Assembly: GCA_903821355.1 (NCBI GenBank)
Contig: CAIJKW010000018.1
Span: 1,453 to 65,452, forward strand
Direction: 5' to 3'
Length of the DNA stretch: 64,000 nt
From: an uncultured bacterium
GTDB lineage: Bacteria > Patescibacteriota > Minisyncoccia > Phycocordibacterales > CAIZLB01
The position numbers and the translations under genes were made by a program. The notes below the pieces were generated by a model. That model saw nothing but the letters and a program-made list of their open reading frames with translations. It did no database searches and had not been told where the DNA came from. Shown here one piece after another: positions 5,706-58,914 of the stretch. The stretch's first letter is position 1, and the number at the start of each line of letters is the position of its first letter.

Positions 5706-5781
5706 GTCCGCTCGGTAGGAATCGAACCTACGACCCTCTGCTTAAAAGGCAGGTGCTCTACCGACTGAGCTACGAGCGGAT
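5706..5781 (-). tRNA. tRNA-Lys (anticodon TTT)
   Basis: Cloverleaf on the minus strand; 7-bp acceptor TCCGCTC/GAGCGGA, T-arm GGTTCGATTCC, anticodon loop CTTTTAA. Confidence 0.8.
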
Positions 5782-5851
5782 ATATTTGATCAAACTAACA
5801 TTCTTGTCTGTATTATCAAATAATGTTAAAACTATATCAAATAATCAAAAA

Positions 5852-6418
5852 ATGTCTAATATTAAGAACGATAAAGATTTAAAAAGCCATGATTCAACAA
5901 ATGGCCTGGTGGCAAAAGGTTCACGCCATCATGATTTTGAGGCTGTCGTTGTTTTGCCTGACATAAGGAGTGCCCATAATGTTGGCTCTATTTTCAGGAC
6001 ATCTGACGCTTCTGGGGTAAGTAAGATCTATCTTTCTGGCTATACCCCAACGCCTTTAAATAAATTTCATAGACCCCAACCCCAAATTACCAAGACCGCA
6101 CTTGGTGCAGAAAAAACAATTCCTTGGGAATATTTTGAGAGCCATATCGTTTTGTTAAATAAATTAAAAAAGGAAGGGTTTAAGATTATTGCTGTTGAAC
6201 AAACAATAAAATCTGTAAATTATAAAGATTTAAAAAATGACGATTTGTTTGGTGTGAATAAAAAAGTCGCGTTTGTTTTTGGGAACGAGGTTGATGGTTT
6301 GCCAAAGGTAATATTAAACAAAACAGATGTTTGTGTAGAGCTACCAATGAATGGGGCGAAAGAGTCTCTAAATGTTTCCGTGACAGCGGGAATTGTGTTA
6401 TTTCAATATTTGACTTGA
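5852..6418 (+). CDS. SpoU/TrmH-family RNA 2'-O-methyltransferase
   Basis: SpoU motifs VVLPDIRSAHNVGSIFRTSDASG and C-terminal VELPMNG..SLNVSVTAGI; the ORF-track start 5753 overlaps tRNA-Lys, so the start was moved to ATG 5852 (MSNIKND). Confidence 0.7.
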   Translation: MSNIKNDKDLKSHDSTNGLVAKGSRHHDFEAVVVLPDIRSAHNVGSIFRTSDASGVSKIYLSGYTPTPLNKFHRPQPQITKTALGAEKTIPWEYFESHIVLLNKLKKEGFKIIAVEQTIKSVNYKDLKNDDLFGVNKKVAFVFGNEVDGLPKVILNKTDVCVELPMNGAKESLNVSVTAGIVLFQYLT

Positions 6419-55655: not shown

Positions 55656-55709
55656 TAACTAAGGTTTAACGTTTGCTAAAATACTAATTAAGTATCTAAG
55701 TAAATTAAC

Positions 55710-55740
55710 AAAAACCACCTCGCAAGGGGTGGTTTTTGTT
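55710..55740 (+). terminator. Rho-independent terminator
   Basis: aaaaccacc-tcgcaa-ggggtggttttt. Confidence 0.6.
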
Positions 55741-55935
55741 ATGTCAAAAATTACGACAATTAATATTCTATAGATAATATTTTTCACAATATCCCATTGC
55801 TAAGATTATTGTCATTACTACTTATGGGTATATAATTAATTAGGCATAGATCTTTACAAGATTCTTTATTGTATTAATTGAAAGATTAAGACAATAAATT
55901 TGCCAAATTTTCGAAGTATGTGTCTAGGTTAGTTT

Positions 55936-56235
55936 TTGAAATTCAAACCAATTGCAATCAAACAATCAGAAAACATGAAATATCTATTACTGCCGGTGGT
56001 AATGCTGATTAAGTTGTATACATTGGGCGTCGTGAGACTTTCCGAGTATATCCTTGGACATTCAAAATCTTTGGTGCCTTGGTCAGAGCTTGGCTGGCAC
56101 GATGTTCACGATTTCTTTATCAGCTGTCTCGTTTCTGCTTTCACTGTCTTTTCGATTTTCTTCATCGCCTTTATCTGCATGTTGACTATTGAAGATATAG
56201 ACATCGCTGGAGATTTGGAAAAACCCAAAATCTAG
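55936..56235 (+). CDS. Small membrane protein, hypothetical
   Basis: 99 aa, two hydrophobic helices. Confidence 0.3.
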   Translation: MKFKPIAIKQSENMKYLLLPVVMLIKLYTLGVVRLSEYILGHSKSLVPWSELGWHDVHDFFISCLVSAFTVFSIFFIAFICMLTIEDIDIAGDLEKPKI

Positions 56236-56295
56236 AACCTCTAACTCTTTCTTAATTCCAACCCACTGCCGACCATCGTGTCGGCAGTAATTTTT

Positions 56296-56354
56296 GTGAT
56301 TATGCATAATCACCCCGTGGCGATTTTGAAGAATCGCCTACCGGGTGCTATAAT
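56296..56354. repeat. Palindromic intergenic repeat, copy D, with an extra upstream palindrome and a TATAAT box
   Basis: gtgattatgcataatcac cccgtg GGCGATTTTGAAGAATCGCC TACCGGG tgc TATAAT; the palindrome overlaps a TTGAAG -35-like hexamer. Confidence 0.7.
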
Positions 56355-56362
56355 ATCAAGTA

Positions 56363-56455
56363 ATGTTTGATAAAACTTCATTCACATTAATCATAGGATT
56401 CTTGTTAATTCTACTCTTTGGCTTCGGCATCTTTATTGCTTCAGCAAATCTTTGA
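56363..56455 (+). CDS. Possible leaderless 30-aa hydrophobic peptide (MFDKTSFTLIIGFLLILLFGFGIFIASANL)
   Basis: ATG 8 nt downstream of the TATAAT at 56349-56354 (leaderless geometry); single TM-like peptide; not in the ORF track because of its length. Confidence 0.3.
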   Translation: MFDKTSFTLIIGFLLILLFGFGIFIASANL

Positions 56456-56529
56456 GGTTGAATGTGTCTAAATTTAGAATTTAGAATTTTAAATTTGACA
56501 GATAAATTGTTTTTGATATTATATAGATA

Positions 56530-56691
56530 CAAATGGGATGTCCCACCCGCCCGAGCTCCAAAAGAGCTCGGGCTTAAGGTTTGTCTATTTTATAAGATTT
56601 CTTACGGACGTTCCCGTTTTCCCTTTGTTAACTGGAATTTGCAAGAAAGGGCCTTCACTTGTAAATAGTTATTTACAAGTCGTCTTTTTTT
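56530..56691 (+). ncRNA. Candidate small RNA of about 160 nt, class unknown
   Basis: Promoter TTGACA (56495-56500) -16/17- TATTAT; internal 9-bp hairpin cccgagctc-caaaa-gagctcggg; terminal cttgtaaatag-ttatttacaag hairpin plus TCGTCTTTTTTT; preceded by AATTTAG tandem repeats; only short overlapping ORFs. Confidence 0.4.
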
Positions 56692-56953
56692 ATAAAATAA
56701 CCAAGAAAATAAGGGTTGTTTAGAATTTGACTTGTTTCTATGACTCAATAAATGAATAAGTCTTATTATCAAAAATGGGTAATAATAAAAAATACCAGTC
56801 TTTAGACCTTTGTTCATAGAGGTTTAAAGAATGTCGCATTATCAAAGGCTATGATAATAGAAAAATAGACCTAGTCAATTATAGTGAAACGTAGTTCTAT
56901 AGAAGTCACTCGTTGACTTGGCATTTCAGATATGATACACTATTGTTATAATT

Positions 56954-57568
56954 ATGAAAAGCAAGAATAACCTTATAGAACAGTTAAAAACCTTACCCCA
57001 CTTCAATAAAAACACCATTCATCAGCTTGGGGTACGGTTGGGGTTAAGGGATTCAACGATTGATGTTTATATTAGTCGCTTTTTGAAGTATAAGGAAATT
57101 TATAAGCTTAAAAATGGATTATATGTATCTACTGATTTCTTTGACAAGAATAAAAATGATATTTCTTATTCATTTTACCTTGCTAATATACTTCGTACAC
57201 CATCGTATGTAAGTTCATGGGCAGCACTTCAGTATTATAATTTAACCACAGAAGCTATTCATTCAATTACTTCAGTTACACAGAAAGTGACAAAAGAATA
57301 TCAGACAAGAGCAGGAAATTTTGCATACCAGTCTATAAATAAAGAATTTTTTTCTGATTTCTCGCTTGTAAAAGGAAAGTTTGATTTTTTCATTGCGTCT
57401 CCTTCAAAGGCATTGTTTGATCTATTGTATTTCAGAACTAATCAGTTTAGAGGGCTTTCAATACAAAATATTAAAGCAATAGTAGAGGAGTTACGGATAG
57501 ATATCGATGAGATGGACAAAGAAGAACAGTCAAAATTTTATTTAATGATTAAAAAAACAAATGAGTAA
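56954..57568 (+). CDS. AbiEi-like antitoxin/transcriptional regulator (type IV TA / abortive infection)
   Basis: 204 aa; N-terminal wHTH-like region with LKNGLYV (AbiEi_4 pattern); overlaps the downstream gene by 8 nt. Confidence 0.45.
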   Translation: MKSKNNLIEQLKTLPHFNKNTIHQLGVRLGLRDSTIDVYISRFLKYKEIYKLKNGLYVSTDFFDKNKNDISYSFYLANILRTPSYVSSWAALQYYNLTTEAIHSITSVTQKVTKEYQTRAGNFAYQSINKEFFSDFSLVKGKFDFFIASPSKALFDLLYFRTNQFRGLSIQNIKAIVEELRIDIDEMDKEEQSKFYLMIKKTNE

Positions 57569-58844
57569 ACAAATTAAGACAATTTTAAAGAAAAAACTTG
57601 ATGACCTTGCCTCTTATGGTGAGATTGGCGCAGAGACACGTCGTAATGCACTTAAAGAAGACTTGCAGTTTTATGTTCTCAATTTTATCTATCATCATCC
57701 AGAATACAATAAATGGATTATGTATGGTGGTTCTGCACTCCGTATCGTTCATGGTCTTGATAGAATGTCGGTTGATTTAGATTTTGAAATTTTTCATTCA
57801 ATAACAGATAAATTTTTAGAAGAATTTAAGAAAGAAATTGAAGACCATTTTACAAATACATATGGCGCTGGAGCAGACTTTCTTAATATTAAAATAACCA
57901 CCGGTAGAGGATTGATTCTAAAATTCTATGTTGGCGATGAGTTAAGTTTTGGACATCCTTCAAAACAGGTTCATATAAAAATTGATCTAAATCATTTTGT
58001 AGCGCCTAAAATTGTGACTGAACGTAGACCAATAAATCAGGATCAGCTTTCTTTTGTTATTCTAACTTATAACATGTCGGCTCTTATGGCGAGCAAGCTT
58101 GCCGCCATCTTTCTAAGAGGGACTCGGGGTATTGGTTCTGCTATATATGAGGAAAAAGGGCGTGATATATATGACCTTCTCTGGTACATGAATAAAAAGA
58201 TTGTGCCTGACTTAGATTATCTAGTAGCTAAAGGAATTGACGTAAAGGATCCTCGGATGATCTTTGATAAACTTACAATTCAGATGAGTAAAGTTAGCGA
58301 TGAAAATCTCAAACAGGATCTTCTACCTCTATTTGTCAACAGGGGTTTTATTGAGAGTTGGCTTAAAAATTGGCGTGAAAGTTATTTTAGACTTCTTAAC
58401 GATTATAAAATTCGTACAGTAGCAGGATTAGAAAAAATCGGAATTTATCAGGATTTTTCCTCAGGTAACTTTTCTTTTGTTTATTGGTACAAAACAGAGA
58501 ATGGTGAATTAATTAGAGTTTACTACACTATAAGTGACTACTGGATTGATCTTGCTGAAGGTAATTTGCTAATTGAATCAGATTCAGAATTGGAAAATAA
58601 GATGGAATTTGGTAATAATGCTGGAAGTGGTCGTACATCTTTACAAGATAAGATTAAGCAATATGCAACTTTATTTTATCAGAAAACGGAAAGATACTTA
58701 AAGAAGACGAATAGAATTATGCTTGGAGACAATGTTATTACTAAGGTGATTCGCATGACAGCTGACGGTTTAAATCAGAAAGAACAGATTGTACTTAATA
58801 AATCAGCCCTATTTTCATGTGAGTTAGATGATCTATTGAAGTAA
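57561..58844 (+). CDS. AbiEii/DUF1814-family nucleotidyltransferase toxin-like protein with a C-terminal extension
   Basis: MYGGSALRIVHGLDRMSVDLDFEIF matches the AbiEii GGTAL...R.S.DlDf signature; 427 aa against about 300 aa for typical AbiEii. Confidence 0.6.
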   Translation: MSKQIKTILKKKLDDLASYGEIGAETRRNALKEDLQFYVLNFIYHHPEYNKWIMYGGSALRIVHGLDRMSVDLDFEIFHSITDKFLEEFKKEIEDHFTNTYGAGADFLNIKITTGRGLILKFYVGDELSFGHPSKQVHIKIDLNHFVAPKIVTERRPINQDQLSFVILTYNMSALMASKLAAIFLRGTRGIGSAIYEEKGRDIYDLLWYMNKKIVPDLDYLVAKGIDVKDPRMIFDKLTIQMSKVSDENLKQDLLPLFVNRGFIESWLKNWRESYFRLLNDYKIRTVAGLEKIGIYQDFSSGNFSFVYWYKTENGELIRVYYTISDYWIDLAEGNLLIESDSELENKMEFGNNAGSGRTSLQDKIKQYATLFYQKTERYLKKTNRIMLGDNVITKVIRMTADGLNQKEQIVLNKSALFSCELDDLLK

Positions 58845-58914
58845 AGCAAATCTTTGATTTTTCTTTAGAAATTCTTTATAGAAACTTCATATCTTTTTTC
58901 TATGATGTGAGGAT

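Follow-up and report, generated by a model that had tools for sequence, protein, structure and literature searches.

A 64,000-nucleotide stretch of DNA from an uncultured bacterium of the Patescibacteriota (assembly GCA_903821355.1, contig CAIJKW010000018.1, positions 1,453 to 65,452; hereafter the window) carries at positions 56954-58844, on the forward strand, two overlapping genes that very likely constitute a real, autonomous and horizontally mobile AbiE-type toxin-antitoxin (TA)/abortive-infection cassette working by the general AbiE mechanism. This grading applies to the AbiE TA identity of the pair and its general mechanism, and the role of the additional C-terminal domain of the toxin is graded on its own below. 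The pair as such is already known, in that standard defence finders detect AbiE in genomes of the Candidate Phyla Radiation (CPR, or Patescibacteria), and some homologues of the toxin are named 'AbiEii/AbiGii toxin family' by NCBI. What is new here is a long toxin architecture with a C-terminal domain of about 145 residues that is as constrained as the active site and has no recognisable relative.

The two genes form a bicistronic operon

The upstream gene (56954-57568, forward strand, ATG start) encodes an AbiEi-like protein of 204 residues, the predicted antitoxin and autorepressor. The downstream gene (57561-58844, forward strand, ATG start) encodes the toxin of 427 residues, in which residues 1-283 (57561-58409) form a DUF1814 nucleotidyltransferase (NTase) domain and residues 284-427 with the stop codon (58410-58844) form a family-specific C-terminal domain. 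The two genes share 8 nt (57561-57568, ATGAGTAA), so that the ATG of the toxin sits inside the last codons and the stop of the antitoxin gene. A first-pass annotation, made by reading the window alone, had described these two open reading frames (ORFs) and their overlap, and the ORF list reproduced both exactly. The strings that it had singled out, KLKNGLYV and the AbiEii signature YGGSALRIVHGLDRMSVDLDFE, were found at residues 51-58 of the antitoxin and residues 55-76 of the toxin, respectively.

Because each protein has more than 1600 homologues (1674 for the toxin and 1967 for the antitoxin) and the ratio of nonsynonymous to synonymous substitution rates (dN/dS) is about 0.1 for both ORFs, we conclude that both are real genes. 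The antitoxin gene adjoins the DUF1814 toxin gene in operon style, with the 8-nt overlap in the window and a position immediately 5' of the toxin gene in 85 of 86 related loci. A conserved third gene or recombinase was sought by clustering the ORFs within 6 kb on either side and was rejected, as just two genes were common to the loci; the 1.93-kb cassette of promoter and two genes is the sole unit conserved across them. The pair is thus a bicistronic, translationally coupled operon behind a predicted sigma-70-type promoter with conserved dyad symmetry.

The toxin has the catalytic domain of the AbiEii family

The toxin matched the Pfam family AbiEii (PF08843) over residues 45-274 with 79.1 bits (E = 6.3e-22), well above the gathering cut-off of 22.5. 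Sixteen AbiEii models of PADLOC also matched, the best being PDLC02293 (E = 5.3e-31, residues 16-279), and an NCBIfam search returned no match. Four motifs of the AbiEii/DUF1814 family have been defined, with mutagenesis, by Dy et al. 2014 (PMC3985639): motifs I and II are of the pol-beta type (hG[G/S]...DhD) with a family-specific Arg, motif III has K and R 7 apart, and motif IV is +DxxD. The toxin has motif I as Y55-G56-G57, motif II as R68-M-S70-V-D72-L-D74, with the family-specific Arg and with S70 at the phospho-acceptor position, motif III as K179-LAAIFL-R186, and motif IV as R201-D202-I-Y-D205. In an alignment of 29 sequences reaching down to 29% identity, G56, R68, S70, D72, D74, K179, D202 and D205 were invariant, and R186 and R201 were at least 90% conserved.

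The AlphaFold2 (AF2) model of the toxin had a predicted local distance difference test score (pLDDT) of 90.2 and a predicted template modelling score (pTM) of 0.88. The top Foldseek matches of this model in the PDB were MenT3/TglT (6j7r, 6j7s and 6j7o) and JHP933 (4o8s and 4ok0), all with probability 1.0 and with E-values from 2e-6 to 5e-5 (1.8e-6 for 6j7r and 1.6e-5 for 4o8s). By sequence, the closest solved proteins were AbiGII (9hlo_B, E = 4.6e-5, toxin residues 47-221) and, when a profile was used, JHP933. The AbiEii identity proposed in the first-pass annotation is therefore supported by the Pfam family score, by the four motifs and by the fold.

The spacing of the R-x-S-x-D residues in the toxin equals that of R76/S78/D80 in MenT3 (PMC11375011) and of R63/T65/D67 (D69) in Streptococcus agalactiae AbiEii. 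S78 of MenT3 and T65 of S. agalactiae AbiEii are the residues that become auto-phosphorylated upon antitoxin binding, and the position of this Ser/Thr acceptor, two residues before the first catalytic Asp, is present in the toxin as the invariant S70. Because antitoxin binding induces auto-phosphorylation of the toxin, AbiE was moved from type IV to type VII in a 2026 preprint (10.64898/2026.01.19.700257); of the description as a type IV TA pair, the TA pair stands while the type label is being revised.

Among known systems, the best structural match was MenT3 (6j7r) of MenA3-MenT3 (Rv1044-Rv1045, TglT/TakA) from Mycobacterium tuberculosis, which belongs with MenT1 and MenT4 of the same organism. 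Ser70 of the toxin falls at the position of the phospho-acceptor S78 of MenT3 and R68 at that of R76, which by analogy suggests the same nucleotidylation of the tRNA acceptor stem and the same antitoxin-induced auto-phosphorylation. However, the two proteins share only 12-13% sequence identity, and MenT3, with about 290 residues, has no C-terminal add-on; normalised to the query, the TM-score against MenT3 reaches only 0.35, as the extra domain finds no counterpart. JHP933 of Helicobacter pylori (4o8s, 4ok0) is alike nearly residue for residue in motifs I and II (GGsal...LdRmSeDLDF versus GETAL...LNRFSEDLDF). On the other hand, JHP933 and AbiGII (9hlo) are proteins of 225-287 residues that match the catalytic domain only, and no AbiEi partner has been described for JHP933.

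A family-specific domain is added at the C-terminus of the toxin

The first-pass annotation had considered the toxin to be about 130 residues longer than canonical AbiEii, with an extra C-terminal region of unknown function. The length difference holds, as the alignments of the AbiEii hidden Markov models (HMMs) stop at residue 274-279 or so and the solved relatives have 225-290 residues, and the extra region turned out to be a conserved, family-defining domain. No such domain is found in S. agalactiae AbiEii, MenT3, JHP933 or the AbiEii homologues on plasmids. The latter, from cultivated bacteria, are distant short-form proteins that align to toxin residues 17-296 only, with 25-29% identity.

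Residues 284-427 were predicted with confidence to adopt an alpha/beta fold (AF2 pLDDT 89-90, whether modelled by themselves or as part of the whole toxin). In the model, the domain would start with a more variable, acidic beta-meander of three antiparallel strands (residues 284-324); a loop of poor order (354-358) would lead into a long basic helix (359-382), followed by two or three further strands (386-398 and 409-411) and two short terminal helices. Among the conserved polar residues of the domain, K375 is invariant, and R398 and T400 are nearly so.

Searches for relatives of this domain found nothing significant with Foldseek in the PDB (best E = 0.018, TM 0.3) or in BFVD (best E = 0.015), no match in a PDB sequence search with a profile of the domain, no consistent Pfam match on it in 25 diverse family members, and no match in 72,556 plasmids. 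A derivation from the antitoxin was ruled out (hhalign probability 0.2%). When 1.84 billion cluster representatives were searched exhaustively by HMMER for the extension by itself, only 63 proteins were retrieved. The full-length ones have 418-487 residues, all but one of them 418-435, and the domain is always C-terminal; in all but one of 16 aligned matches it is preceded by a canonical AbiEii domain, and the sole match with a named source comes from Dojkabacteria, a CPR lineage.

From the 117 least-diverged toxin pairs, we obtained a dN/dS of 0.07 for the NTase domain (residues 1-283), 0.21 for residues 284-360 and 0.065 for residues 361-427. Because these values show purifying selection, we conclude that the extension is functional, with a second half that is under as much constraint as the active site. 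A constraint on the 3' end of the gene as DNA or RNA, imposed for instance by an overlapping element or by an attachment site, was rejected as the cause of the near-invariance of the last 65 residues, since the synonymous-codon entropy there (0.79-0.88) is like that elsewhere. The two halves also differ in charge: residues 284-360 are acidic (6 K/R and 12 D/E) and residues 361-427 are basic (12 K/R and 8 D/E).

By analogy, the reading that we favour, though only tentatively, is that the C-terminal domain would act as a docking or selectivity module for the RNA substrate (tRNA) through the basic helix 359-382 and residues K375, R398 and T400. The acidic and more variable residues 284-360 may be a regulatory or partner-binding surface. 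Alternatively, the whole domain could be a sensor or regulatory module that recognises a phage protein or auto-inhibits the NTase, so that the toxin would be a fused sensor-effector and the antitoxin a second layer of control. The region of the beta-meander (284-360) is the fastest-evolving part of the toxin (62% mean identity, dN/dS 0.21 versus 0.07 elsewhere), its divergence is poorly correlated with that of the N-terminal domain (r = 0.25), as would be expected of a surface that tracks a variable partner, and the related AbiG is reportedly activated by a phage tail protein (review PMC13064643). However, a dN/dS of 0.21 is still purifying selection, the nearly invariant and basic residues 361-427 fit a conserved ligand such as RNA better, and the canonical systems of AbiE and MenT do without a domain of this kind. 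We consider the sensor function rather unlikely. A wider proposal is that CPR bacteria added a previously unseen fold to the AbiEii/MenT NTase, and that this fold sets the RNA target or couples the toxin to its trigger; this is possible but doubtful.

The upstream protein resembles AbiEi antitoxins

Sixteen AbiEi models of PADLOC matched the 204-residue protein. The best two were PDLC02241, which aligned to residues 15-188 of 204 with E = 2.2e-34, and PDLC02230 (E = 5.6e-33). Its top 120 homologues, of 1967, have 197-228 residues (nearly all 202-208) and are 77-90% identical to it; none of the 120 carries a precomputed Pfam domain, and their source names include 'predicted transcriptional regulator of viral defense system' (COG5340-type) and 'AbiEi family antitoxin'. 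A Toxin_10 match in Pfam (E = 0.018) was judged to be spurious.

Pairwise distances among the antitoxins correlate with those of the NTase domain with r = 0.59 and with those of either part of the extension with r = 0.27. This is weak evidence that the antitoxin may touch the catalytic domain, and it agrees with the published AbiEi-AbiEii complex, in which AbiEi spans the active-site face.

A conserved promoter precedes the pair and may serve as operator

The promoter scan and the alignment of related loci placed a promoter/operator at 56913-56953 on the forward strand, with a -35 box TTGACT (56913-56918), a 17-nt spacer, a -10 box TACACT (56936-56941) and 12 nt to the ATG. The arrangement TTGACA/TTGACT-17/18-TACACT/TACAAT, 11-12 nt before the ATG, is present in 65 of 71 loci. 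In the 71-locus alignment, conservation starts sharply at the -35 box: positions from there to the ATG are 80-99% conserved versus about 35% further upstream, and the conserved promoter region is 45 bp long. That the promoter is conserved although the synonymous sites of the coding sequences are saturated points to an operator.

An imperfect dyad of about 38 bp, centred 12 nt 5' of the ATG, is present in 60 of the 71 loci, with a mean of 12.0 complementary pairs out of 19 versus 9.5 +/- 1.15 in shuffled sequences; the copy in the window has 11 of 19. The outer arms are TTTCA/TGAAA, the right arm entering codons 1-2, and the inner arms are ACA(C)T/A(n)TGT. In the window, the dyad extends from ATTTCA (56922) into the first codons, ATGAAAA. 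Judging from the sequence, this is a putative operator for autorepression, to which the antitoxin would bind. The leader between the transcription start predicted from the -10 box and the ATG has only 4-7 nt or so and no Shine-Dalgarno sequence. Because there is no room for such a sequence, the antitoxin mRNA is probably leaderless or nearly so.

Taken together, the pair resembles the AbiE systems of S. agalactiae and Lactococcus (COG5340-COG2253, PF08843) in several ways. It is a bicistronic operon that opens with the antitoxin gene, and its toxin is a pol-beta-type NTase of the DUF1814 family that has motifs I-IV and the active-site strand R-x-[S/T]-x-D-x-D. AbiEi HMMs detect the antitoxin, the dyad-symmetric promoter is consistent with autorepression, and the location is mobile or accessory. 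In addition to the C-terminal domain, the pair differs from these systems in the short leader and in the single 38-bp dyad over the -10 box and the start codon, whereas S. agalactiae has two 23-bp inverted repeats.

The long form is almost confined to CPR bacteria

The top 120 of the 1674 toxin matches have 421-428 residues and, besides one 100% self-match, 74-87% identity to the toxin; Berkelbacteria, WWE3 and Parcubacteria are among the lineages that they represent. In 185,579 genomes (one per GTDB species) we found 446 loci, and the best 80 of these, with 67-86% identity, belong almost entirely to Patescibacteria of many classes. On the basis of these best 80 loci, the long-form subfamily comes almost entirely from CPR bacteria. 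Synonymous sites are saturated, with a normalised codon entropy of about 0.8 throughout and a median pairwise proportion of synonymous differences (pS) of 0.79, and this saturation rules out recent horizontal spread as the cause of the identity of about 75% across phyla.

Conservation of this kind could also be expected of an RNA nucleotidyltransferase that is no toxin at all but a housekeeping-like CPR enzyme of tRNA repair or tailing, with the upstream protein as its transcriptional regulator. The proteins are very strongly conserved over many CPR classes, with a dN/dS of 0.07-0.1 while dS is saturated. In CCA-adding enzymes, body and tail domains help to hold the tRNA, and the basic invariant residues of the extra domain recall these. 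However, the spread of the cassette is patchy, with only the 446 loci among so many species genomes, and its absence from the syntenic site in close relatives suggests that it is dispensable. Furthermore, its genomic context varies without conserved neighbours, it is strictly paired with an AbiEi-type protein, and it has kept the phospho-acceptor Ser typical of toxin control. We regard a housekeeping enzyme as very improbable.

Several contigs carry unusual copies of the cassette. One (L032, 5300-9560) repeats the whole pair perfectly in tandem, over at least 2,054 nt, through either a recent duplication or an assembly artefact. JBAXTU010000009.1 (L052 and L061) has two diverged copies of the pair 8.7 kb apart, with toxins 88% and antitoxins 94.5% identical. 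Cassettes of about 70% identity are found on a contig binned to DPANN (L056, PEXD01000020.1, labelled Candidatus Woesearchaeota archaeon) and in non-CPR bins of Pedobacter, Gammaproteobacteria, Clostridia and Spirochaetales (L009, L045, L063, L084 and others); these may be mis-binned CPR contigs or may reflect genuine transfer.

The cassette lies in a variable island

The cassette is part of a variable island (55754-58860) between the gene of a peptidoglycan (PG)-binding-domain protein and an LCAT-like gene. We compared the window by blastn with sibling loci, defined as those of genomes with an L10 protein that clusters with that of the window at 90% identity. Homology to sibling L092 ends at 55753 and restarts at 58861, 16 nt past the stop codon of the toxin, and where the window has the island of 3.1 kb, L092 has 243 nt (5734-5976). 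The gene order in siblings L092-L094 is FtsK, a 310-aa gene, PG_binding_1 protein, the 243 nt, LCAT-like protein, L10 and L12, and this layout without the pair is the ancestral arrangement. In another sibling lineage (L087-L090), PemK-NYN-PemK genes occupy the same site (about 2800-5080 in L087). Since other TA genes are found at the same site in siblings, the site is a TA/defence hot-spot.

Besides the 1.93-kb cassette, the island holds at its left about 1.16 kb that resembles no other AbiE locus; a small peptide gene and a candidate small RNA (sRNA) are found there. Its GC content, like that of the cassette, is 0.31-0.32 versus about 0.36 for the window. No direct repeats of 8 nt or more were found flanking the edges of the island or the cassette, and Rfam searches over the window and the locus, by gathering threshold and by E-value, found nothing relevant near the pair. 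The upstream 1.26 kb was rejected as part of the cassette, as neither blastn nor tblastx showed it to be similar to any of the 86 loci, and it has no phage match. The first-pass annotation had placed the pair in a small accessory neighbourhood, followed by a giant lipase-like protein, within an otherwise housekeeping window. The protein was rightly named, the 1231-aa product carrying an LCAT/alpha-beta-hydrolase domain, but its gene belongs to the syntenic core in siblings that lack the pair, so that the accessory neighbourhood is limited to 55754-58860. The housekeeping character of the window agrees with the tRNAs found in it and with rplJ/rplL at its end.

Around other copies of the cassette, the variable neighbours include serine recombinases (7 loci), GIY-YIG proteins and probable DNA methyltransferases (recognised by eye from the sequences), and those in the Berkelbacteria loci include transposases, type I restriction-modification genes and RhuM. 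Such surroundings could also suit a selfish addiction or stabilisation module, or a stress-response TA system, that has no role against phage and in which the C-terminal domain serves oligomerisation or stability. AbiE modules are known to stabilise plasmids and islands (PMC3985639), recombinases and transposases surround the cassette in several loci, the hot-spot holds PemK/NYN TA genes in siblings, and some contigs have duplicated or paralogous copies. On the other side, the defence models of PADLOC match both proteins strongly, and the pair adjoins restriction-modification genes in several loci; moreover, addiction and defence are not mutually exclusive. A system without any phage role appears unlikely to us.

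Other features were seen in and beside the island. A gene for a hydrophobic peptide of 30 residues (MFDKTSFTLIIGFLLILLFGFGIFIASANL) lies at 56363-56455 on the forward strand, with a TG-extended TATAAT that ends 8 nt before the ATG, a leaderless-like arrangement. Because the variable region of sibling L087 (about 2680-2770) holds a homologue of 30 residues (MFDKNSFKLIVGFLIILIVGFAVFVISAHL), the ORF in the window is probably a real small membrane-peptide gene, possibly of a type I toxin-like peptide. The candidate sRNA of about 165 nt (about 56495-56692, forward strand) has a strong promoter-like site, TTGACA-16-TATTAT, a folding energy of -55.7 kcal/mol (z = -5.4), and an AT-rich stem with a T-run at its 3' end; it has no Rfam match. 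Its promoter and 5' end are kept in L087 (4749-4829, in opposite orientation), where the GC hairpin differs in sequence yet is self-complementary, which suggests covariation. Just past the gene of the PG-binding protein, a hairpin at 55706-55741 with a 14-bp stem and T-runs on both strands (87% over 47 nt in L092) looks like a bidirectional terminator. An Rfam match of this hairpin to STnc370 was rejected as sub-threshold (37 bits versus a gathering score of 54), the hairpin being most likely a terminator-like structure. An ORF of 99 residues at 55936-56235 (forward strand), with hydrophobic stretches and followed by a terminator-like hairpin at 56265-56288, is of uncertain coding status; it has no Pfam match and no exact match in the protein collection.

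Discussion

We propose that the pair operates as other AbiE systems do. From what is known of the AbiEi/COG5340-like family, the first product would repress its own promoter. As in MenA3-MenT3 and in AbiEi-AbiEii of S. agalactiae, the antitoxin would neutralise the toxin: bound across its active site, it would induce the auto-phosphorylation of Ser70. Phage-induced shut-off, or loss of a labile antitoxin, would free the toxin, and the freed DUF1814 toxin would, as the MenT/AbiEii literature indicates, add nucleotides to the 3' ends of tRNA and arrest translation. Restriction-modification genes or recombinases near some loci, and the TA hot-spot in the present lineage, provide the context for a role in phage defence.

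Several points weigh against this AbiE reading. The pair is credited by homology with toxicity, antitoxicity, tRNA modification, phosphorylation and phage defence, and what is proposed for the C-terminal domain draws solely on charge, conservation and analogy. The antitoxin, unlike those of S. agalactiae and Lactococcus AbiE, is too divergent for all Pfam AbiEi models (AbiEi_1 to AbiEi_4, including PF13338 and PF11459), none of which matched it at E <= 1. A PDB sequence search with the antitoxin, including a profile search, found no match to a solved AbiEi or MenA3, although the PADLOC alignments cover both halves of the protein. The dyad symmetry of the promoter is modest, both on average (12 of 19) and in the window. 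For a defence gene, an amino acid identity of about 75% over many CPR classes is unusually high; it could mean that the role of the system depends on a conserved partner in the cell and not on phage. Furthermore, no relative of the cassette was found in the viral contigs of IMG/VR. Because the defence-specific HMMs and the operon context support it, we have kept the AbiEi assignment in spite of the failure in Pfam; the identity that the first-pass annotation proposed for the upstream protein thus stands on the PADLOC models, the source annotations and the operon linkage.

In a survey of bacterial genomes from groundwater, CPR genomes included, AbiE ranks in the top five defence families by prevalence, the long form not being split from the canonical one (PMC12259885). 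Our search of the literature found no description of the long-form architecture, of the extra domain or of the conserved promoter/operator.

NTase toxins of the AbiE/MenT type are among the commonest bacterial defence and TA modules, and their tagging of tRNA and their control by auto-phosphorylation are under active study. If the C-terminal domain sets the choice of substrate or senses the trigger, it would widen the known design space of this toxin family, and it would also give access to defence and the control of translation in organisms not yet brought into culture. At 1.93 kb, and with a conserved promoter/operator of its own, the compact cassette would be easily testable in a heterologous host. 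If the domain is indeed a fold added by CPR bacteria, the pair would represent a separate class, 'long-form AbiE', that has a target specificity of its own; this specificity might be adapted to what is unusual in the tRNA and ribosome biology of CPR bacteria or to their episymbiotic lifestyle.

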